Assembly: GCA_964635905.1 (NCBI GenBank)
Contig: CAZWPK010000004.1
Span: forward strand, 25,012 to 89,011
Reading direction: 5' to 3'
Source: an uncultured Pseudomonadales bacterium
GTDB lineage: Bacteria > Patescibacteriota > Microgenomatia > UBA1400 > UBA12028
DNA length: 64,000 bases
Shown here one piece after another: positions 4,075 through 60,269 of the stretch; the stretch's first letter is position 1, and each line of letters begins with the position of its first letter. The notes under the pieces were generated by a model. That model was given only the letters and a program-made list of their open reading frames with translations, did no database searches and was not told the DNA's origin. The position numbers and the translations under genes are program-made.

Positions 4075-5073
4075 CTAGTATTGTACTAGAGAACTGCTAT
4101 TTTTTTTAGACAGCACTTTTCTAGCCGCCAGCGCAATGTGGCGCGCCGTGATTCCGTAGTGTTCATAGAGTTGCTTTGGGGTTCCCGATTGGCCGAATTG
4201 ATCCTGCACACCGACAAACTCCATGGGAAGTGGTAAATGGCTGGCTAGCGTCTGTGCTACCGTACTTCCTAGTCCTCCAATTACCTGATGATCTTCAATT
4301 GTCACCACACAACCGGTTTTTTGACAGTGGGACAATAAGCCCTGGACATCAAACGGTTTGAGCGTATGCACATTGAGGACCTGCGCCTGAATTCCTTGAT
4401 TTAGCAGGTGCTGTCGGGCAAGCAACACGTCATAGAGAAGGGGACCCGTAGACACCAAAGTTACGTGTTCACCTGTTGCAACTTCTTGGACTTTTCCGAG
4501 CTTAAACGGGGTCGTAGGTGTAGAGAGAATGGGAGTTGGTTCTCGGGCGATGCGAAGGTAGACGGGACCGACATGGGAGGCGGCAGCGTTTACTGCTTCT
4601 TCCGTCTGTAGACTATCCGCAGGGGAGAGAACGGTCATATTGGGGAGGACTTGGGTGATCGCCAAATCTTCCAACGCTTGGTGTGTGGCACCGTCAGGAC
4701 CGACAGAAAGACCCGCATGTCCCCCAACAATTTTCACATTCGCATTGGAGTACGCCACGCTCACGCGTAACTGGTCCCAGTTGCGACCTGGACTAAAGAC
4801 TGCATAGGAGCAGACAAAGGGGACTTTGCCACACAATGCCAGTCCTGCCGCAATTCCTAGCATGTTTTGTTCTGCAACCCCACATTCAATAAATCGACTC
4901 GGAAACTCGGTTGCAAACTCTTGAACACGGAGTGACTCCGAAAGATCCGCGGTGAGCACCACAATGTTTTGCTGTTGCTTGCCTAGCCGCAGAAGGGCTC
5001 GACCAAATCCATCGCGGGTTGCTTCTTTTTTAATGTCTAATGGGTTCTCGATGGTGTTCCAATGCGATGTCAT
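4075..5073 (-). CDS. Transketolase, C-terminal (pyrimidine-binding + C-terminal domain) subunit
   Basis: 'EFPSRFIECGVAEQNMLGIAAGLA', 'GGHAGLSVGPDGATHQ' transketolase Pyr-domain motifs; ATG at 5073-5071 overlaps the N-subunit stop (ATGA). Confidence 0.85.
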   Translation of the reverse strand: MTSHWNTIENPLDIKKEATRDGFGRALLRLGKQQQNIVVLTADLSESLRVQEFATEFPSRFIECGVAEQNMLGIAAGLALCGKVPFVCSYAVFSPGRNWDQLRVSVAYSNANVKIVGGHAGLSVGPDGATHQALEDLAITQVLPNMTVLSPADSLQTEEAVNAAASHVGPVYLRIAREPTPILSTPTTPFKLGKVQEVATGEHVTLVSTGPLLYDVLLARQHLLNQGIQAQVLNVHTLKPFDVQGLLSHCQKTGCVVTIEDHQVIGGLGSTVAQTLASHLPLPMEFVGVQDQFGQSGTPKQLYEHYGITARHIALAARKVLSKKNSSSLVQY

Positions 5074-5924
5074 GCCATTCCTTGAGTTGAAAGTTCTTGT
5101 AACGCTTGCGCTGCTTGTGCGGGATTGGGAGGTTTCCCATGCCAAGTGTAGTCCTGTTCCATAAAGGACACCCCTTTTCCTGGAATGGTGTGGGCGATGA
5201 TGCAGGTTGGTTTTTCATGAATCGCTTTTGCGGCGATACAAGCAGACTCAATCTCCGCAATCGAATGTCCATCCACTTCAATGACATGCCAATTAAAGCT
5301 TTCATACTTTTCACAGAGAGGTTCTAACGGCATGATGGTTTGTGTTGTTCCGCTGATTTGGATGTCATTGCGATCAATAATTACGGTCAAGTTGAAGAGG
5401 TGGTACTTTGAAGCGAAGAGCATTGCTTCAAAAACTTGTCCCTCGTTATGTTCCCCATCACTCAAGATACAGTACACATGGGCTGGGTTGTTCTCTAATC
5501 GCAAGGCTAACGCCATTCCGATTGCCTGAGAAAACCCTTGCCCTAGGGGACCACTGCTTGTTTCAACCCCTGGACAATCTAGTCTACTTGGATGACCCTG
5601 AAGGCGCGAACCAAACTGGCGCTGCGTTTCTAACTCTTTAACAGAAAAGTACCCAGATTCCGCGAGGCTCGCGTAGAGCACAGGACAGATATGCCCACAC
5701 GACAAAATCAGTCGATCTCGTTCATTCCAGGCTGGATTACTGGGGTCATGATTAAGCAGTGAAAAGTAGAGAACGGAAAAGACATCCGCCATCCCAAGGG
5801 CCCCCGCACTGTGACCAGATCCAGCTTTGGCAAGCATGCTGATAATATCTTTGCGGATCGTTGTCGCTTTTGCTTTAAGCTCTTGGTGTGTACAGTTGAA
5901 TGGATTCACTTCTCTATCATACAA
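5070..5924 (-). CDS. Transketolase, N-terminal (TPP-binding) subunit
   Basis: 'GSGHSAGALGMADVFSVLYF', 'GHPSR', 'SDGEHNEGQVFEA' TPP-binding signatures; split two-gene form. Confidence 0.85.
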   Translation of the reverse strand: MYDREVNPFNCTHQELKAKATTIRKDIISMLAKAGSGHSAGALGMADVFSVLYFSLLNHDPSNPAWNERDRLILSCGHICPVLYASLAESGYFSVKELETQRQFGSRLQGHPSRLDCPGVETSSGPLGQGFSQAIGMALALRLENNPAHVYCILSDGEHNEGQVFEAMLFASKYHLFNLTVIIDRNDIQISGTTQTIMPLEPLCEKYESFNWHVIEVDGHSIAEIESACIAAKAIHEKPTCIIAHTIPGKGVSFMEQDYTWHGKPPNPAQAAQALQELSTQGMA

Positions 5925-36018: not shown

Positions 36019-36990
36019 ATGAAACGAACACCAATCTTGATAGGGGTATTCCTTTTTCTGGGGCTAGTAGTCATTACTGGCGTTGGACTTGTAGCTTTTC
36101 TATTTTTTCCGAAAGCACGAACTGCACCAACCCAAAAAATCGTCATCAAAAAGGGAGACACCCTTTTTAAAGTTGCAGCGCAGTTGGAAGAGGCTGGAAT
36201 TGTTCGCACTGCTTGGGGGATCAAAGTGGCAGCCAAAATAGGAACAGCTCCAACCATTCATCCGGGAACCTATGAACTATCACCGTCCATGAGCCCACAA
36301 CAAATTCTTGATACATTATCGACAGAACCAGAAGAAGCATGGGTGACTTTTTTAGAGGGATTGAGAGTTGAAGAATACGCGCAGGAAATGGAAAAGAATT
36401 TTCCCGACACTTTTAATACGCAGGAATTTTTGACGTTGGCCAAAGCCAAAGAAGGAAGGTTATTTCCGGATACCTATTTATTAGAAAAAAATGTTTCCCC
36501 ACCAATGTTGATTTCATTGCTGTCCAATACGTTTGATAAACGCTATGCCCAAGCAGGTGAGGGTGGAATGGTTGATACAGTACTGACTCAACAGCAATTA
36601 GTTGTATTGGCGTCGTTGCTAGAACGTGAGGCAAGAGGTGAAGACTCAATGAAAATGGTTGCTGGAATTCTGTTAAACCGACTTCGTATTGGGATGCCTC
36701 TGCAAGTGGATGCAACGCTACAGTATGCCAAAGGATATGATCGTAAGGCAGAGACGTGGTGGTCTACACCCAAATCGGAAGACAAAGCCATTGATAGCCC
36801 GTTTAATACCTACAAAAACACAGGCTTACCTCCCAGTCCGATTTGTAATCCTGGGCTACTGGCACTAAAAGCTGCCCTCTCTCCCACAAAGTCCAATTAT
36901 TTGTATTACATTTCCGATACGAAAGGTGCGATGCATTACGCGACGACCTATCCTGAACATCAAAAAAATATTGAAACCTACTTAAAATGA
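36019..36990 (+). CDS. mltG: Endolytic murein transglycosylase MltG (YceG family)
   Basis: N-terminal TM, 'GTYELSPSMSPQQILDTL', 'LQVDATLQYAKG', 'YLYYISDTKGAMHYATTYPEHQKN' YceG signatures. Confidence 0.8.
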   Translation: MKRTPILIGVFLFLGLVVITGVGLVAFLFFPKARTAPTQKIVIKKGDTLFKVAAQLEEAGIVRTAWGIKVAAKIGTAPTIHPGTYELSPSMSPQQILDTLSTEPEEAWVTFLEGLRVEEYAQEMEKNFPDTFNTQEFLTLAKAKEGRLFPDTYLLEKNVSPPMLISLLSNTFDKRYAQAGEGGMVDTVLTQQQLVVLASLLEREARGEDSMKMVAGILLNRLRIGMPLQVDATLQYAKGYDRKAETWWSTPKSEDKAIDSPFNTYKNTGLPPSPICNPGLLALKAALSPTKSNYLYYISDTKGAMHYATTYPEHQKNIETYLK

Positions 36991-37214
36991 GCGACGCTTC
37001 AGAACCAATTTTTATCACTCCTAAAACAGATCTTGTTCTCCTGGAAGATCGCTATGGTCTAGACGCGCTTCGTGGGGCAATGGATGATCCGAAACTCCCT
37101 GCAGAGATTCAATCAATTGTAGCGTTCTACGTACTATCAACTTCGAGTGGAACAGAGTTGAAGCGAGCAGTTGTTTCTGAATATCCAGCTGGATGGAAAC
37201 AGAGACGTCAATAG
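36987..37214 (+). CDS. Small hypothetical protein
   Basis: 75 aa ORF ATGA-coupled to mltG; acidic, no motif. Confidence 0.3.
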   Translation: MSDASEPIFITPKTDLVLLEDRYGLDALRGAMDDPKLPAEIQSIVAFYVLSTSSGTELKRAVVSEYPAGWKQRRQ

Positions 37215-37285
37215 TTCTTAGAGAATGTATCTGTGATGGTAGACACAGGAAATATTCAGCTTCTAAGCGTACAATAGCATACGTG

Positions 37286-38851
37286 ATGATGCTTAAACTC
37301 TTGATTCCCGTATTGGCACTTCTTGGTCTACTTGATGCCGGGTACCTTACCTATGAAAAAATGATGGGAATCGTTCCTCCCTGCAGCCCATCCTTTGACT
37401 GTGAGACGGTATTGCAGAGTTCTTGGTCATCCATCGGACCCATTCCTGTCTCGGTGATGGGGATGCTTTACTATACTGTCATCTTGTTTTTGGGAAGCCT
37501 TCTTGTTCTGGATGTGAAAAACATTCCATTTCGAGGACGTGGTGTCTCCCTATTTCAGATCGTGCGATTCGTCTCTACTGTTGGCTTTTTAAGCTCAATG
37601 GGGTTTGTGTATCTGATGGCGGTTGTGATTCAAGCCTGGTGTCCCTATTGTGTAATCTCCGCTGGAATTAGTACGGTTCTCTTCCTGATTGTGTATCTCT
37701 TGTCGCGCAGTCGCACCCAAAGTACCCAAAGAGTCTCAGAGTATCCCTTAAATCTGGCATTCTTTGCTTTTGTCTATCAGGTTCTCTTAAAACCAATTTT
37801 ATTTCGGTTTAACCCGGAAACGATTCATCATCTCTTTGTTCGGTTTGGAAAAATACTCGGGATGACTCCAGCAACGCGGGCATTAACACGTTGGTGTTTT
37901 TCCTATCCCAATTCTGTCCCCATTGTTCTTGCTGGTATCGATTTCACAAACAAAGTTGGATTATCCGCAGGGTTTGACTATGATGCGGACCTTACGCAGA
38001 TTCTTCCGGACATCGGTTTTGGGTTTGCAACCCTGGGTACAGTGACATTGCACCCATATGAGGGGAACACCCGACCAATGCTCACGCGCTTTCCAGACTC
38101 AAAAGCGCTTTTGGTAAATAAAGGCTTTAAGTCCATCGGAGCCCCTGCGGTGATTGCGAAACTAGAAGGGCAGACCTTTCGAATTCCCATTGGTATTAGT
38201 ATCGGGAGCACCAATAAGATTTTTAACTCCTCCAAGGAACAGATCGATGATGTGGTAAAAACTTTTCGGCTGTTTGAAGCTTCCAGTGTTGCGCACTCCT
38301 ACTATGAATTGAATATCAGTTGTCCCAACACCAAAGGAGGACAACCCTTTACGGATGCGAAGCGCTTAGATGCACTGCTCAAAGCCTTACGAGTGCTCCA
38401 GATTCAAAAGCCCGTGTTCGTCAAACTTCCCATCGATCTTGCGGATGGCTTAAGTCGGGCGACTACCCATACACAGCTACTCTCCCTGGTAGACCGAATG
38501 TCAAAAGAACCCTGGATCGTTGGCCTCATCAGTGGCAATTTAACTAAAGATCATGAAAATACTTCCGTTTCCACTTCCGACCGCACACAATGGAAGCAAC
38601 GCAAAGGAGGAATTAGCGGGAAACCTACCTTTGAACGCTCTAATCTCCTTATTTCCGCACTCCGCAAACGCTTTAGGTCTCGTTTTCTTATTATTGGGAC
38701 AGGAGGGGTTTTTTCCGGCGAGGATGCGCTAACAAAGCTTTCATCGGGAGCGGACCTTGTGCAGTTAATTACAGGAATGATCTATCAAGGCCCGCAGGTA
38801 ATTGGAGATATTAATTGGGTCCTCTCGGGAAAAGACTCTAAAAAAAAGTGA
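37286..38851 (+). CDS. Fusion protein: N-terminal VKOR (vitamin K epoxide reductase/DsbB-like) membrane domain + C-terminal family-2-like dihydroorotate dehydrogenase (FMN TIM barrel)
   Basis: VKOR: loop Cys pair 'PPCSPSFDC', TM CXXC 'AWCPYCVISAG'. DHODH: 'LFRFNPETIHHLFVRF' (quinone-site helices), 'GIDFTNKVGLSAGFD', 'GFGFATLGTVTLHPYEGNTRPMLTRF', 'LVNKGFKSIG', 'ELNISCPNTKG', 'GGISGKP', 'IIGTGGVFSGEDA...LVQLITGMIYQGP' match E. coli PyrD block by block. Confidence 0.75.
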   Translation: MMLKLLIPVLALLGLLDAGYLTYEKMMGIVPPCSPSFDCETVLQSSWSSIGPIPVSVMGMLYYTVILFLGSLLVLDVKNIPFRGRGVSLFQIVRFVSTVGFLSSMGFVYLMAVVIQAWCPYCVISAGISTVLFLIVYLLSRSRTQSTQRVSEYPLNLAFFAFVYQVLLKPILFRFNPETIHHLFVRFGKILGMTPATRALTRWCFSYPNSVPIVLAGIDFTNKVGLSAGFDYDADLTQILPDIGFGFATLGTVTLHPYEGNTRPMLTRFPDSKALLVNKGFKSIGAPAVIAKLEGQTFRIPIGISIGSTNKIFNSSKEQIDDVVKTFRLFEASSVAHSYYELNISCPNTKGGQPFTDAKRLDALLKALRVLQIQKPVFVKLPIDLADGLSRATTHTQLLSLVDRMSKEPWIVGLISGNLTKDHENTSVSTSDRTQWKQRKGGISGKPTFERSNLLISALRKRFRSRFLIIGTGGVFSGEDALTKLSSGADLVQLITGMIYQGPQVIGDINWVLSGKDSKKK

Positions 38852-38889: not shown

Positions 38890-38918
38890 TTGCAACTTGA
38901 GAAGATCTCACCTATAAT
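38890..38918 (+). promoter_or_regulatory. sigma-A-type promoter (TTGCAA-17-TATAAT)
   Basis: -35 38890-38895, 17-nt spacer, -10 TATAAT 38913-38918. Confidence 0.5.
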
Positions 38919-39099: not shown

Positions 39100-42000
39100 A
39101 TGCAAACACTACGCCAATATTGGGGAAAACAAGACATCAAACTCCCGAAACTTGACCTTACACGTGTGCAACGTGAATCGTATGAATGGTTCCTCAAGGA
39201 AGGCATTCAAGAAGCCCTCAATGAAATTAATGCCGGTAATGGCATTGAAGACTTCACACGAAAGAACTGGAAGCTGGAATTTGGAGAATTTTCTTTAGGG
39301 AACCCTAAGATTTCTCCCGCAACCGCACGTCGTAAAGCCTTAACTTATGACATGCCGTTACGTGTCATGGCAACCTTGACGAATAAACAAACCGGTCAAC
39401 AAACTCGTCAAGAAGTCTTTTTAGGTGATATTCCTAAAATGACCCAAACGGGAACATTTATTATTAATGGTGTTGAACGTGCCGTCGTAAACCAGCTCGT
39501 TCGTGCTCCTGGAATTTTCTACTCCGCCGATATTGATCCCAACACGGGTCGCAGTCTGTATCATGCAGAACTTCGTCCCCTTCGTGGATCTTGGTTAGAA
39601 TTGTCGGTTGGTCGCGGAGATGTGATCACCGTCAAGATTGATAAACATCGAAAAATCGCAGTCACAACTCTCCTTCGAGCCTTAGGCTATGCCTCCAACG
39701 ATGATATCGTGGGTATGTTCTCCGATACGGATAAAAACCCCGATCATCAATACATTCAAGCAACGCTTGCCAAAGACACCACCGCAACGACTGCGGAAGC
39801 GTTGTTGGAAATCTACGAAAAAATGCGTCCTGGGGAACCAGCCGTCTTAGAGAATGCAACCGAACTGTTAAACGAACTGTTCTTTGATCCTCGTCGCTAT
39901 GACTTGGGCAAAGTTGGTCGGTACAAGATGAACCGACGACTCAAAGTGAATATTCCGAACGAAAAAGAGAACCATGTCTTGACCAAAGACGATATTATTG
40001 CCGCGATTAAATACTTAATTGGACTCCAGAATGGTCAAGGAAAAGTGGATGATATTGATCACCTCTCGAACCGTCGCGTCCGTCGAGTCGGTGAATTAGT
40101 GTTAACCAACGCCTTTAGAATTGGATTACTCCGGTTGGAACGTGCGATTCGTGAAAAAATGTCACTGTCCAAGACCGATGAATTATTGACACCAAGTTCA
40201 CTCGTCAACGCACGACCATTAATAGCGACAATTTCAGAATTCTTCCGACGAAATAGACTCTCTACCATTTTGGATCAAACCAATCCTCTTTCCGAAGTGG
40301 ATAACCTCCGTCGTTTGTCCGTGATGGGATCTGGTGGTGTGACCCGAGAACGTGCCAGTTTCTCCATGCGTGACATTAATGCCTCGCAATATTCTCGTAT
40401 TGACCCGGTCCGGTCTCCAGAAGGACAAAACATCGGATTGGTGACCTACATGTCCTTATATTCACGCGTTAATGACTATGGCTTTTTGGAAGCTCCGTAT
40501 CGTCAAGTGATTAAAGAAGAGAAAAATGGAAAAGTACTCATGCGTGTATCGGATGAGATCGTCTACATCGCTGCTGACGAAGAAGAAGATTACGTGATCA
40601 CCCACGCTGGAATTGATATCGATGCCAAAGGATACATTTCTGATGAATGGGTTCCATTTAGAACGGGAAACGAATTCTTAGAAGGATCTGTCGAACGTGT
40701 CCAACTGATTGACATCGTTCCACGCCAAGTCGTAGGAACCTCTGCCTCGTTGATTCCATTCGTGTCGCATGACGAAGCGATTCGTGCCTTGATGGGTACC
40801 CACATGCAATGTCAGGCTGTTCCACTCTTAAAGCCAAGTAGTCCGGTCGTCGGAACTGGGATGGAAGGCTCTGTTGCCGCAGCCATGGGACGTGTTGTCT
40901 ATGCTCGCCATGAAGGAACCGTTGACTTTGTTGATGGAAATAAAGTGGTCGTCACCTTAAATGACAGTGAAGTTACCGCCTTAAAGACCGAACAACTAGA
41001 AGAAAATGAATACGTGCATGTTGAAGGTAAAAAAGAAATTTATTCTATTGTGAAGTTTTACCGTACCGCTCAGAGTACCTGTTACTCTCAAAAACCAATG
41101 GTAACGGTAGGTCAAAAAGTACAACGTGGAGACATCCTCATTGATGGACCATCGTCACAAGGTGGAGAACTTGCATTAGGACAAAACCTACTGATTGCCT
41201 ATACTTCCTATGAAGGATTAGGTTACGAAGACGCGATCATTATTTCAGATCGATTAGTGAAGCAAGATTTGCTCACATCCATTCATATTAATGAGTATGA
41301 ATGCCAAGTGATGGATACAAAACTTGGGCCTGAAGAGCTGACTGCTGATATTCCCAACGTTTCTGACATCGAGCGACGTAACTTAACCACAGACGGAATT
41401 GTGGCAATTGGAAGTGAAGTCAGTCCAAACGATATTTTGGTGGGAAAGATTGCACCTAAAGGTGAAACTGAATTGACCGCTGAAGAACGATTACTTCGTG
41501 CTATTTTCGGAGAGAAAGCTCGAGAAGTCCGTGATACCTCGCTGCGTATGCCACATGGTGAATCCGGAACGGTGATTGATGTCAAAATCTTGGATCGAGA
41601 AAAAGGTGATGAATTAGATCCAGGGGTCAACAAAGTCGTGACGGTCAAAGTTGCCATTATTCGTAAGGTAACGGTCGGAGACAAGCTTGCGGGACGACAC
41701 GGGAACAAAGGTGTGATCAGTAAGATTGTTCCTCAAGAAGATCTTCCATACTTAGAAGATGGAACACCTGTCGACATTATTATTTCTCCATTGTCCGTGC
41801 TTGCCCGTATGAACTTAGGTCAGCTCTTGGAAGCACATTTGGGCTGGGCAGCAGAAAAGTTGGGTTACAAAGTGGCAGTCCCCGTCTTCGAGGAAGTCTC
41901 TGAAGACAAGATTACCTCCGAGATGACAAAAGCAGGCCTTCCAGTTTCTGGAAAAGTACGCTTGTATGACGGAAAAACTGGAGAATCGTACAGTGAAGAC

Positions 42001-50361: not shown

Positions 50362-50796
50362 ATGAATGAGAACACTCATCCGTTGTCTCTCTACTTTCAG
50401 TTACGAAATATCCAGTATGGAAAGGAAAGAAAAGATACTGAGAGGTTAAATGATCGAAAGGGAGAAGTCTCTACCAGAAAGAAACTGGAAGGACATTATT
50501 TGTCAGCGCTACGGTATAAAGTTGAGCATATGCAGAAGTATTTGGATGCATTACTCTCAACCGAGGATGGAAATTCTGATCTAGCATTTCTTGCAATTCG
50601 AGGGTTTAACCTAACCTTACAAGAAACTATTATCGCTGCCGAGCAAGAAGCCGTTGCACTTATTGAAGAATGGAATACAAGTGCGGAACCAAAAGACTGG
50701 GTAAATAAATCGCTAAACAATATTGGGAATGAACTACTGAGTTTGTTTGATATAGAACAGAAAAAAGATAAGTTTATTAGTTCAAGAAGAAACTAG
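50362..50796 (+). CDS. Hypothetical protein inserted between fusA and tuf
   Basis: 144 aa ORF starting 4 nt after the fusA stop; helical, K/E-rich; locally AT-rich. Confidence 0.4.
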   Translation: MNENTHPLSLYFQLRNIQYGKERKDTERLNDRKGEVSTRKKLEGHYLSALRYKVEHMQKYLDALLSTEDGNSDLAFLAIRGFNLTLQETIIAAEQEAVALIEEWNTSAEPKDWVNKSLNNIGNELLSLFDIEQKKDKFISSRRN

Positions 50797-60008: not shown

Positions 60009-60269
60009 ATGAATAGTTCAGAATTTTCACCCAAAAATGTAGAAGAAAGTCGTGAAACACTTGTTGATTGGGCAGAGGAAGTTGCTACAAGAGAAATTGA
60101 AACGGGAACCGAAATTAGTAGTGGATTGCTTATTCAAAATGAAATCGCGTGGATCATTAACGTGCTAGCTGCGGACGAATACAAGTTTGAAGGGTACTCA
60201 CTCACCAAAGAGGAGCGAGAATCATATGAACAAAGAATAAATCAGTTATATGAGATATGGGGAATGTAA
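60009..60269 (+). CDS. Small acidic hypothetical protein inserted between rpsH and rplF
   Basis: 86 aa, strongly acidic ('EESRETLVDWAEEVATREIETGTE'); in-operon spacing of ~12 nt on both sides. Confidence 0.4.
   Translation: MNSSEFSPKNVEESRETLVDWAEEVATREIETGTEISSGLLIQNEIAWIINVLAADEYKFEGYSLTKEERESYEQRINQLYEIWGM

Follow-up and report, generated by a model that had tools for sequence, protein, structure and literature searches.

A VKOR/DHODH-like pairing conserved across hundreds of species of ultra-small (CPR) bacteria: an altered flavoenzyme active site suggests a redox role other than ordinary pyrimidine synthesis

The window analyzed here, a 64,000-nt stretch of contig CAZWPK010000004.1 (assembly GCA_964635905.1, positions 25,012 to 89,011, forward strand) from the Patescibacteriota (Microgenomatia), carries a gene that encodes a VKOR membrane domain fused to a dihydroorotate dehydrogenase (DHODH)-like flavoenzyme. 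Its features are given below in window coordinates, with the evidence for each in parentheses.

37232..37247, no strand assigned: Crp/Fnr-type palindrome-like box TGTGATGGTAGACACA, located 39 to 54 nt 5' of the ATG at 37286 (motif search in upstream regions).
37286..38851, plus strand: the whole gene, a VKOR/DHODH-like fusion of 521 aa plus the stop codon (ORF list, Pfam, NCBIfam).
37286..37720, plus strand: VKOR domain, aa 1-145, a four-helix membrane bundle (Pfam, alignment to Synechococcus VKOR 4NV6/3KP9, AF2 model with a pLDDT of 93.6, K+R bias of the loops).
37382..37402, plus strand: Cys pair CSPSFDC (C33, C39) in a predicted outer-face loop, followed by the invariant Ser45 (alignment to 4NV6, conservation in homologues, translation).
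37640..37651, plus strand: CXXC center CPYC (C119, C122) at the predicted outer end of TM4 (alignment to 4NV6, conservation, translation).
37703..37747, plus strand: basic, predicted cytoplasmic linker after TM4 (SRSRTQSTQRVSEYP), where split homologues divide into two genes (AF2, comparison with split homologues, K+R bias).
37748..37900, plus strand: class 2 DHODH N-terminal helical domain (quinone-tunnel helices) with the invariant His181 of NPETIHH (NCBIfam, alignment to E. coli PyrD, AF2 helices).
37901..38830, plus strand: DHODH-like FMN-binding TIM-barrel domain (Pfam DHO_dh, E = 1.3e-48; Foldseek).
37979..37981, plus strand: Tyr232 in AGFDYD, which replaces the Lys of canonical DHODHs (alignments to canonical DHODHs, translation).
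38312..38332, plus strand: active-site loop NISCPNT, with Cys346 (38321-38323) where class 2 enzymes have their catalytic Ser (structure alignments, conservation, translation).
38534..38551, plus strand: GNLTKD, which retains the substrate-binding Asn418 and has an invariant Leu419 where the canonical NTT has its first Thr (alignments, translation).

The VKOR and DHODH-like halves lie in a single frame (37193..38851, plus strand) with no stop codon or frameshift between them, which bears out the first-pass annotation of this DNA, where the gene had been described as one ORF. Translation from the start at 37286 (MMLKLL) gives a protein of 521 aa that matches a database protein (P0001, 521 aa) with 100% identity from end to end. 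The upstream in-frame ATG at 37193 is probably not used, and the Crp-like box falls inside the extension that would start there. A frameshift or an assembly chimera is excluded because the same fusion is shared by hundreds of independent assemblies. As the first-pass annotation had noted, the gene lies directly 5' of rpoB (at 39100, 249 nt after the stop codon), and no pyr gene is found among the ORFs that flank it in the window. A promoter and terminator scan around the gene gave no signal over background, except for a promoter-like site before rpoB.

The VKOR half matches the Pfam VKOR profile (PF07884) at aa 6-136 with a score of 82.9 bits against a cut-off of 27.5 (E = 2.9e-23), covering profile positions 2-133 of 134, and the helices of its AF2 model span aa 2-26, 55-74, 89-115, and 120-144. 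In the HMMER alignment to Synechococcus VKOR, C33 and C39 fall on C50 and C56, while C119 and C122 fall on C130 and C133 (CPYC versus C130-M-Y-C133); the presence of a VKOR domain with both Cys pairs, proposed earlier from the letters alone, is thereby confirmed. The four-TM core, the loop Cys pair, the loop Ser, and the TM4 CXXC are all shared, residue for residue, with the Synechococcus VKOR-thioredoxin protein (3KP9/4NV6). Both VKOR Cys pairs, as well as the Cys of NISCPNT, are kept in 120/120 homologues with 46-100% identity, and such invariance of five cysteines is far beyond chance. The four VKOR cysteines, the loop Ser, and three residues around the CXXC (W118, S125, and A126) are invariant in 103-120 sequences.

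Contrary to the expectation at first reading, fusion to a thioredoxin is not the norm for bacterial VKORs; the nearest relatives here that are not linked to a DHODH are stand-alone VKORs beside a separate DsbA-like gene. Among slightly more distant VKOR relatives (39-44% identity), a DsbA>VKOR operon is found in 3/3 cases, and one relative is a VKOR-DsbA fusion; in having such sister VKORs, the fusion family resembles the actinobacterial pairs of VKOR and MdbA/DsbA. Unlike those pairs, the fusion VKORs have no adjacent thioredoxin or DsbA gene: a CXXC scan detected no thioredoxin-fold or DsbA-like partner in the window, and phmmer searches with the DsbA domain of protein P0188 detected no DsbA/MdbA-like gene within 10 kb of the DHODH-linked VKORs at 85 loci.

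In the C-terminal half, aa 215-510 match Pfam DHO_dh (PF01180) with 166.2 bits (cut-off 27; E = 1.3e-48). The best NCBIfam matches of this half, within aa 159-516, are models of quinone-dependent (class 2) DHODH, whose alignments start at model position 2-6 (aa 159-167); therefore, the N-terminal helical extension is present, and in the AF2 model its helices span aa 155-172, 177-191, and 195-205. Among the class 2 models, the cut-off of TIGR01036 is just reached (200.8 bits versus 200), and ten subfamily models of the NF0036xx (PRK05286) series all stay under their own cut-offs, the two best at 260.2 versus 448 and 255.6 versus 267. Class 1 DHODH models score 51-65 bits against cut-offs of 269-330, and class 1A structures in the PDB are matched at aa 322-520 with E values of ~1e-8 to 1e-9. 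A Foldseek search of the PDB re-found only class 2 DHODHs, with target-normalized TM-scores of 0.82-0.89 to the human, E. coli (1F76), and M. tuberculosis enzymes. Neither of two related families accounts for this half: dihydropyrimidine dehydrogenase PreA was rejected with 16.7 bits against a cut-off of 335 (NF006183), and dihydrouridine synthase was rejected with no Dus match in Pfam. These comparisons show the C-terminal half to be a class 2 DHODH descendant with an FMN TIM barrel and a retained quinone-tunnel domain, and they uphold the class 2 scaffold with an N-terminal helical domain that had been recognized at first reading. With class 2 DHODHs such as E. coli PyrD and the human enzyme, it shares (at 28-30% identity) the two-helix quinone-tunnel domain with a DPExxH-type His, the FMN TIM barrel, the four substrate-binding Asn residues, and the NISxPNT loop.

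The active site of this scaffold is altered. Where class 2 DHODHs keep Ser, Lys, the Asn of GINIGKN, and NTT, the fusion half has Cys, Tyr, Ser, and NLT; it is also tethered or operon-linked to a VKOR and lacks a pyr context, unlike the class 2 enzymes. The first of these replacements had been noticed in the first-pass annotation and is confirmed by HMMER alignments to solved structures, in which Cys346 coincides with the catalytic Ser of the M. tuberculosis and A. baumannii enzymes; the class 2 Ser base (E. coli Ser175, human Ser215) is Cys346 in 103/103 and in 120/120 sequences. The annotation of this half as a DHODH is correct for the scaffold, but the assignment as a true DHODH overlooked the other three replacements. 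The Lys of AAGxDK (E. coli Lys66, human Lys100, Leishmania Lys44) is replaced by Tyr in 101 and by Trp in 2 of 103 family sequences, whereas the GINIGKN Asn is replaced by Ser and the first Thr of NTT by Leu, each invariantly or nearly so across the family. This Lys binds FMN and the carboxylate of orotate (PMC12481576, PMC12197698), the latter contact being seen in a solved class 1A enzyme (PMC12481576). Class 1A DHODHs (Lactococcus and the fumarate-dependent enzymes of trypanosomatids) resemble the fusion half only in using Cys as the active-site acid/base; they are distant in sequence (35-65 bits), soluble, devoid of the N-terminal quinone domain, and keep the Lys. Their active site also reduces fumarate, by a ping-pong mechanism (PMC12481576), which offers a precedent for a DHODH site working reductively. 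The fusion family has lost none of the four Asn residues that bind the pyrimidine ring: N278 (aligned with a one-residue shift), N343, N348, and N418 show no variation, so dihydroorotate (DHO) or orotate is still a possible substrate. Alignment to E. coli PyrD shows that His181 of the quinone tunnel and the FMN motifs have been retained. As judged from the sequences, the altered active site suggests a redox role other than ordinary pyrimidine synthesis.

The AF2 model of the full-length protein is confident overall, with a pTM of 0.89. Mean K+R counts are 1.2 for the N-terminus, 3.7 for loop 2, and 3.2 for the linker after TM4, compared with 0.8 and 0.35 for the two Cys-bearing loops. Taken with the positive-inside rule, the predicted four-TM topology has both Cys pairs facing outward and locates the FMN domain in the cytoplasm. 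A fifth TM helix with an external flavoenzyme was considered and rejected: the hydrophobicity of the segment at aa 155-175 is only borderline, this segment corresponds to helix alpha-1 in the alignment with E. coli PyrD, and the DHODH-like partners of split systems, which begin at this segment, have no signal peptide or TM segment. In this respect the fusion differs from the Synechococcus protein, whose VKOR is joined through a fifth TM helix to an extracytoplasmic thioredoxin-like domain, whereas here a cytoplasmic FMN enzyme is predicted to follow TM4. With the redox centers across the membrane from each other, a mobile quinone would therefore be needed, and the direct, hard-wired electron path between FMN and the VKOR relay that had been envisaged at first is unlikely under the modeled topology. 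The protein is instead a predicted two-sided membrane redox enzyme, with a complete VKOR whose Cys relay faces outward and a flavoenzyme in the cytoplasm.

Relatives of the fusion protein are found in at least 556 species-level genomes, and the VKOR/DHODH-like pairing has been maintained across hundreds of species of ultra-small (CPR) bacteria. The best 80 relatives all come from Microgenomates-type CPR bacteria; 71 of them show the same fused architecture and 9 are split, with the two genes adjacent or clustered in most split cases. Both domains are present in all 120 best homologues. Each of the four closest stand-alone VKORs examined lies directly 5' of a DHO_dh gene of the Cys/Tyr type, either with a 4-nt overlap or with a flavodoxin gene between the two. 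The two halves form an obligate pair: about 90% of the sampled genomes carry them as a fusion, and nearly all others as adjacent or clustered genes. Annotation pipelines label such proteins "quinone-dependent dihydroorotate dehydrogenase"; apart from these labels, we found no dedicated curated family for the fusion. Our literature search found no paper describing a VKOR-DHODH fusion, and the papers in which VKOR and DHODH are mentioned together all deal with ferroptosis.

The description of the gene as sitting alone is accurate for the window, where no remnant of a lactate dehydrogenase (LDH) gene was found between yceG and the fusion gene (tblastn, E>5), but not for its relatives. In split clusters and at some fused loci, the pair recurs in several arrangements with genes for L-lactate dehydrogenase, flavodoxin, and a Crp-type regulator. 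A peroxiredoxin is also present at one such locus, and a DsbD_TM-thioredoxin reductive pathway is found near the fusion in one genome. A GTGA-N6-TCAC box with at most one mismatch occurs in 6 of 80 upstream regions, compared with 0.6 expected; all six boxes are 52-61 nt upstream, and the respective loci either belong to the clade of the window or have an adjacent Crp or LDH gene. FNR-type boxes (TTGAT-N4-ATCAA) showed no clear enrichment in the upstream regions. In phmmer searches with E. coli MG1655 queries, no homologues of CarA/B or PyrB/C/E/F/I were detected in 1.37 Mb of CPR DNA (1.31 Mb of loci plus the 64-kb window), an absence that is suggestive only; these loci share synteny. Nucleotide biosynthesis, including UMP synthesis, has been described as largely missing from CPR bacteria (PMC4742961).

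Respiratory chains, too, are generally reported to be absent from CPR bacteria (PMC12931201). The reading that we favor, with a probability of about 0.35, is that in such cells the flavoenzyme half re-oxidizes the quinol produced by the VKOR. To our knowledge, most CPR bacteria lack quinone synthesis. The VKOR would work in its usual direction, oxidizing a DsbA/MdbA-like partner for the folding of secreted proteins and reducing quinone, and the two halves would exchange electrons through this membrane quinone, which would shuttle in a private loop from the outer leaflet, where the VKOR pocket lies, to the DHODH tunnel at the inner leaflet and back. The flavoenzyme half would run "backwards," re-oxidizing the quinol and passing the electrons via FMN to a cytoplasmic acceptor bound at the remodeled site, with Cys as the acid/base, as in fumarate-reducing class 1A enzymes, and Tyr in place of Lys. 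The electrons could go to O2, to fumarate or another enoate, to a pyrimidine, or, in the split systems, to flavodoxin. The flavoenzyme would thus stand in for the missing respiratory chain, and pyrimidine biosynthesis would not be its primary role.

Several observations bear on this proposal. It agrees with the consistent pairing of the two domains, with the predicted topology, and with the retention of the VKOR residues, His181, and the FMN motifs, which speaks for catalytic competence. The usual direction of the VKOR is favored by the DsbA>VKOR operons of the relatives with 39-44% identity and by the DsbD-type reductive pathway nearby in one genome. A CPR-enriched family of MdbA-like oxidoreductases, often encoded beside VKOR, was described by Meheust et al. 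(2019), who proposed pilin disulfide formation (PMC6744442). A role other than that of a plain DHODH is supported by the four replacements (Lys to Tyr, Ser to Cys, Asn to Ser, and Thr to Leu) and by the lack of pyr genes in 1.37 Mb, and a redox role is supported by the LDH, flavodoxin, and Crp-type regulator neighbors, the peroxiredoxin at one locus, and the Crp-like box. On the other side, no DsbA/MdbA-like gene lies beside the DHODH-linked VKORs (85 loci and the window), DHO or orotate could still be the substrate, the TIGR01036 cut-off is just reached, and orotate as the acceptor would be uphill. Textbook redox potentials are about -0.26 V for orotate/DHO, about -0.12 V for DsbA-type disulfides, and about -0.07 V for menaquinone, with flavodoxin below DHO/orotate; by these values, the orotate-linked disulfide formation suggested at first reading would be thermodynamically unfavorable. 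The linkage to LDH and flavodoxin fits the opposite electron direction equally well.

In that opposite direction, the VKOR would be reversed, and electrons from a cytoplasmic reductant (DHO, or reduced flavodoxin in split systems) would pass via FMN and quinone to the VKOR cysteines and on to extracytoplasmic disulfides or oxidants, serving as the electron sink of a fermenter or as a source of reducing power at the cell surface. Such outward electron disposal, which we consider somewhat unlikely, is the thermodynamically favored direction by the same potentials. It would also suit the clustering and probable co-regulation of the pair with flavodoxin and LDH, the latter a classical fermentative electron dump, and the absence of an adjacent DsbA-like gene, which sets the DHODH-linked VKORs apart from their DsbA-linked sisters. 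However, the closest outgroup VKORs are DsbA-partnered oxidases, and all characterized VKOR and DsbB proteins that we know of run from thiol to quinone. Moreover, a DsbD-type reductive pathway is already close by in at least one genome, the Lys-to-Tyr replacement speaks against DHO as the donor, and no terminal extracellular acceptor is known.

It is slightly less probable still that the flavoenzyme is an ordinary biosynthetic class 2 DHODH with Cys as an alternative catalytic base, for which the VKOR is a neighbor or fusion partner sharing a scarce, possibly host-derived quinone acceptor, the quinol being re-oxidized elsewhere, whether by O2, a bd/bo oxidase, or some other enzyme. The profile matches to quinone-dependent DHODH, the TM-scores of 0.82-0.89, and the pipeline names all agree with this explanation, as do the retained substrate-binding Asn residues, FMN motifs, and quinone-tunnel His; quinol oxidases and quinone-related genes have been reported in some Patescibacteria (PMC12931201). 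It is opposed by the general lack of UMP synthesis in CPR bacteria (PMC4742961) by the absence of any pyr gene in 1.37 Mb, and by a gene neighborhood made up of LDH, flavodoxin, and Crp instead of pyr genes. Further, the two best equivalog models stay below their cut-offs (260 versus 448 and 255.6 versus 267), and the Tyr, Ser, and Leu replacements depart from all canonical DHODHs compared. In such an arrangement, the two halves would compete with each other as quinone reductases, and no oxidase is known. Finally, that the VKOR half is a mere membrane anchor or a degenerate domain with no redox role of its own is very improbable: eukaryotic class 2 DHODHs do use an N-terminal TM anchor, and the fusion does set the quinone tunnel at the membrane surface, but an anchor would be expected neither to keep its four cysteines, loop Ser, W118, S125, and A126 invariant in 103-120 sequences nor to persist in split systems as a separate, translationally coupled gene.

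Quinol re-oxidation by the flavoenzyme, our favored reading, and outward electron disposal can be accommodated in one broader proposal, which we regard as an even bet. The VKOR/DHODH-like pair, joined in some lineages by LDH, flavodoxin, and a Crp-type regulator, may constitute a hitherto unrecognized, self-contained transmembrane redox loop of CPR bacteria, in which a neofunctionalized DHODH descendant no longer makes orotate and a private quinone couples external thiol/disulfide chemistry to a cytoplasmic flavin, either as the terminal oxidant for disulfide formation or as a minimal means of outward electron disposal without respiration. The functional analogy would be with DsbB/VKOR coupled to a respiratory chain and with Ero1/Erv, the flavin sulfhydryl oxidases, where the oxidation of external or lumenal thiols is coupled via quinone or flavin to a terminal acceptor. 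The proposed flavin module, however, is derived from DHODH, would lie across the membrane from the thiols, and is not homologous to Ero1/Erv.

To attach to their hosts, CPR bacteria depend on surface proteins that are secreted and disulfide-bonded, among them pili and sortase substrates. The VKOR/DHODH-like pairing offers a concrete candidate both for the re-oxidation of VKOR and for the persistence of a "quinone-dependent DHODH" in CPR cells. Should the flavoenzyme half prove to act on a new substrate or to work in reverse, the DHODH family would gain a new functional class; hundreds of "quinone-dependent dihydroorotate dehydrogenase" annotations would then be wrong, and metabolic reconstructions that count the fusion gene as a step of the pyrimidine pathway would need correction.

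The gene at 37286-38851 (+) had been read in the first-pass annotation as a one-gene fusion of a VKOR membrane domain with a class 2 dihydroorotate dehydrogenase (DHODH), complete with the N-terminal helical extension of that class but with Cys in place of its catalytic Ser, and located upstream of rpoB; all of this was borne out. The six-frame ORF list has a single open frame (37193..38851, +) with neither a stop nor a frame change between the halves, and the product contains both Pfam domains, VKOR (PF07884; aa 6-136, E=2.9e-23, 82.9 bits against a cut-off of 27.5) and DHO_dh (PF01180; aa 215-510, E=1.3e-48). Translation from the ATG at 37286, by which all motif coordinates were confirmed, gives 521 aa with full-length 100% identity to a public protein (P0001). 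The frame stays open upstream to an ATG at 37193; 37286 was taken as the start because the additional 31 residues are missing from P0001 and their coding segment holds a Crp-like palindrome.

The ten top NCBIfam models are all “quinone-dependent dihydroorotate dehydrogenase” and align from model position 2-6 (aa 159-167) to aa 509-516; therefore, the class 2 extension is present. Class 1 DHODH models score only 51-65 bits and the PreA (dihydropyrimidine dehydrogenase) model 16.7 bits, so that the profiles favor a DHODH, as first proposed, rather than DPD/DUS. The top solved-structure matches (HMMER, E about 1e-39 to 1e-34) are the class 2 DHODHs of M. tuberculosis, A. baumannii, E. coli, and human, whose NVSSPNT/NISSPNT motifs align with NISCPNT of the query, placing Cys346 at the catalytic Ser position. 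The VKOR half alone, compared with the Synechococcus VKOR (4NV6/3KP9), aligns C33/C39 with C50/C56 and C119/C122 with C130/C133.

Upstream of the fusion gene lie ruvX, yceG/mltG, and a 75-aa ORF; rpoB follows after 249 nt. This gap contains a sigma-70-like promoter match (TTGCAA-17-TATAAT, 10/12; 38890-38918), which suggests that rpoB may be transcribed separately. Elsewhere in the window, the following ORFs were noted, the last two of which interrupt an otherwise standard str/S10/spc ribosomal-protein run:
4075-5924 (-): adjacent ORFs 5070-5924 and 4075-5145, which look like a transketolase encoded in two pieces, N- and C-terminal
50362-50796 (+): 144-aa ORF of unassigned function between the EF-G and EF-Tu genes
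60009-60269 (+): 86-aa ORF of unassigned function between the S8 and L6 genes

Searched against about 5.8 billion proteins, the fusion protein had 2,503 matches. The best 120 of these (46-100% identity) all have both Pfam domains, and all 120 keep the four VKOR cysteines and Cys346. Further invariant positions in the 103-sequence family alignment include S45, W118, S125, A126, H181, N278, N343, S345, P347, N348, K380, and N418. The few names on the matches are “hypothetical protein,” “dihydroorotate dehydrogenase,” and “quinone-dependent dihydroorotate dehydrogenase,” and the named matches come from Patescibacteria, Woesebacteria, Pacebacteria, and Cerribacteria. At least 556 genomes in GTDB r232 (one genome per species) have a relative, the best 80 being assigned to Woese-, Pace-, Roizman-, Gottesman-, and Cerribacteria, “Microgenomates,” and “Patescibacteria group.” Many third-party MAG records with this gene of the candidate phyla radiation (CPR) are titled “uncultured Pseudomonadales” or “uncultured Gammaproteobacteria,” and single records titled “Vitreimonas sp.,” “Methylococcaceae,” and “Limisphaerales” are also among the carriers (loci L007-L085). 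These non-CPR titles look like mislabels, because L007 (CAZNKS010000003.1, the same as L005) has the synteny of the window's CPR relatives, ftsK-alaS-sortase-ruvX-yceG-LDH-fusion-rpoB-rpoC (LDH, L-lactate dehydrogenase).

NISCPN is present in all 80 genome loci, and the fusion is a single ORF in 71 of them. In the other 9, domain HMMs built from the family alignment find the halves as separate genes; in one of these (L050), the HMM search detected no VKOR inside 10 kb of the DHODH gene. The VKOR half alone matches 433 clusters at E<=1e-10 among 1.84 billion cluster representatives, and the best 150 of these are nearly all stand-alone VKORs of 138-200 aa. The closest stand-alone VKORs that were looked up, four in number, each lie directly upstream of a DHO_dh gene, in one case with a flavodoxin gene between, and these partners (L092-L096) share the AGFDY, NISCPN, and GNLTKD signatures with the fusion.

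Loci with separately encoded halves (positions within each locus)
L045, L048, L059: VKOR then DHODH, stop and start overlapping
L052, 4951-7445: VKOR-LDH-DHODH
L057, 8220-11140: VKOR-LDH-flavodoxin-DHODH
L039 (9980-13731), L051: DHODH, opposite-strand Crp-type regulator, VKOR-LDH
L046, 7457-11059: mirror image of the L039/L051 order
L093, L094, L095/L096: VKOR then DHO_dh, 4-nt overlap
L092, 703-5075: VKOR-flavodoxin-DHO_dh

Three of three more distant stand-alone VKORs (E of 1e-15 to 1e-18) sit in DsbA-like>VKOR operons. The DHODH-linked VKORs are thus closely related to the classical DsbA-oxidizing VKORs and differ from them in their partner, which is very constant. Taken together, the fused, split, and operon-linked forms argue strongly that the two halves function jointly. 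Among close relatives, VKOR is also fused to a DsbA-like domain via a long linker (P0188, 488 aa) or to an Archease domain (P0267, 285 aa).

When genes up to five positions from the target were clustered across 85 loci, the commonest neighbors, an ELP3-like radical-SAM gene, a methyltransferase, VIT1, MazG, and RecQ, followed lineage-specific synteny. A class I methyltransferase (254-257 aa) lies directly upstream on the same strand in 24 loci (among them L001, L003, L048, and L095), the ELP3-like gene just past it in 28, and the VIT1 iron-transporter gene downstream on the opposite strand in 25. These surroundings, possibly tRNA modification genes, are probably lineage synteny and not part of the system. 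LDH (Pfam Ldh_1_N + Ldh_1_C) is found, variously arranged, in at least 12 loci, and the Gln in its specificity loop presumably marks a lactate, not a malate, dehydrogenase. A Crp/cNMP-binding regulator is present in at least 11 loci. The split clusters in L052, L057, L092, L039, and L046 are compact and draw on one set, VKOR, L-LDH, flavodoxin, and a Cys/Tyr-type DHODH, in varying order; the flavodoxin (PF00258) recurs in the last four, and a Crp-type regulator lies inside or beside four of the five. In a single example (L093, 275-4988), an AhpC/TSA peroxiredoxin and an NADPH-dependent FMN reductase (FMN_red) adjoin a Crp / VKOR>DHODH cluster, a possible link of the pair to peroxide or oxygen handling.

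In the closest relatives from the window's clade with long contigs, LDH is divergent, upstream of the fusion on the opposite strand. The window has no LDH in this yceG/mltG-to-fusion gap and no detectable remnant (tblastn E>5); instead, the gap is filled by the 75-aa ORF without a Pfam match (36987-37214). Six of 80 loci have a TGTGA-N6-TCACA palindrome of the Crp/Fnr type, with at most one mismatch, ahead of the start of the VKOR or fusion gene (0.6 expected from shuffles of the 80 upstream regions; sd 0.76, maximum 3). All six boxes are 52-61 nt upstream of the alignment-estimated start, and the loci (the window, L006, L007, L004, L032, and L035) belong to the window's clade or have an adjacent Crp/LDH gene. 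The window's copy is as follows:
37232-37247: Crp/Fnr-type palindrome-like box TGTGATGGTAGACACA, 39-54 nt ahead of the start codon at 37286

Neither a pyr nor a DsbA/Trx-like gene is among the conserved neighbors in the 85 loci. The lack of pyr neighbors, already remarked on in the first-pass annotation, extends to the window plus 1.31 Mb of loci, where E. coli CarA, CarB, PyrB, PyrI, PyrC, PyrE, and PyrF have zero phmmer matches; the DsbA domain of P0188 likewise has none in the loci.

The AlphaFold2 model computed from the family alignment is confident (mean pLDDT 93.6, pTM 0.89) and has long helices at 2-26, 55-74, 89-115, and 120-144, a lower-confidence linker, and helices 155-172, 177-191, and 195-205 leading into a beta/alpha barrel; in Foldseek, the C-terminal 350-380 residues match class 2 DHODHs with target-normalized TM-scores of 0.82-0.89. 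Family means of K+R are 1.2 in the N-terminus (about 8 residues), 3.7 in the TM2-TM3 loop, and 3.2 in the post-TM4 linker, against 0.8 in the 28-residue cysteine loop and 0.35 in the short pre-CXXC loop. This distribution points to the usual VKOR orientation, in which the cysteines face outward and the N- and C-termini lie inside. A fifth TM helix is ruled out: segment 155-175 is of borderline hydrophobicity and aligns with helix alpha-1 of E. coli PyrD, and the split DHODHs, which begin at the equivalent segment, have neither a signal peptide nor a TM segment. The flavoenzyme half is so predicted to be cytoplasmic, putting the redox centers on opposite membrane faces, which speaks against the “hard-wired” electron path suggested earlier. 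The only evident link between them is a quinone that shuttles between the pocket of VKOR and the tunnel of the DHODH half.

Alignment of the family with E. coli PyrD, compared with HMMER alignments to solved structures, shows that the quinone-tunnel His (H181, in a DPExxH-type motif), the FMN motifs (K380, GG(I/L)SG(K/R)P, and GTGG), T349, and the four Asn residues that bind the pyrimidine ring are all kept. In contrast to canonical enzymes, the fusion family has invariant Cys346 for the class 2 catalytic Ser, Tyr232 for the Lys of AAGxDK (101 Tyr and 2 Trp in 103 sequences), invariant Ser305 for the Asn of GINIGKN, and invariant Leu419 for the first Thr of NTT. In a class 1A DHODH of known structure, the orotate carboxylate accepts a hydrogen bond from the corresponding Lys (PMC12481576), and for the human enzyme Lys100 is listed among the residues of the active site with hydrogen bonds to substrate and FMN (PMC12197698). 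The TIGR01036 cut-off is exceeded by 0.8 bits, and all PRK05286 subfamily models are below theirs. Because of these active-site changes and equivocal curated-model scores, we call the C-terminal half class 2 DHODH-derived and do not class it as an orthologous PyrD.

The analysis shows an outward-facing VKOR relay that has kept every catalytic residue and an inward-facing FMN enzyme whose quinone tunnel is intact and whose substrate site is remodeled, in an obligate partnership and a redox-flavored neighborhood. The normal activity of VKOR, as of class 2 DHODH, is quinone reduction. A fusion of two competing reductases is hard to rationalize unless the quinol is oxidized elsewhere; failing that, one of the halves has to work in reverse. 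A classical electron-transport chain is missing in most Patescibacteria (PMC12931201), nucleotide biosynthesis is largely missing in CPR bacteria (PMC4742961), and CPR are enriched in an MdbA-like oxidoreductase, often beside VKOR, that has been proposed to form pilin disulfides (PMC6744442). In the reading that we favor, at a probability of roughly 35%, VKOR would work in its normal direction and the flavoenzyme half would re-oxidize the quinol. This fits the sister VKORs being DsbA oxidases, the DsbD-type reductive pathway near the fusion in one genome, and the use of Cys as acid/base in C=C-reducing family members; its weakness is that the acceptor is putative and that orotate in that role would be uphill. 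Flow from dihydroorotate or flavodoxin via quinone and VKOR to external disulfides would be thermodynamically easier, and the LDH and flavodoxin linkage fits a fermentative electron-disposal regulon; however, such reversal has no known precedent in VKOR or DsbB enzymes, and we consider it somewhat less likely than the favored reading. The conservative reading, a plain biosynthetic DHODH sharing scavenged quinone with VKOR, is weakened by the active-site changes and the genomic context, and we regard it as improbable. The invariant cysteines and the split operons all but rule out a VKOR half that serves only as an anchor.

VKOR and DHO_dh are both well-known families. Precomputed domain tables already show the two together, and annotation pipelines call the fusion a quinone-dependent DHODH. 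A full-text literature search of incomplete coverage found no published account of the fusion, of its operon-linked version, of the changes in the active site, or of the association with LDH, flavodoxin, and Crp. The chances appear evenly balanced that the VKOR / DHODH-like pair constitutes a new functional system, and the case for the fusion is stronger and broader than was visible from the window sequence alone.
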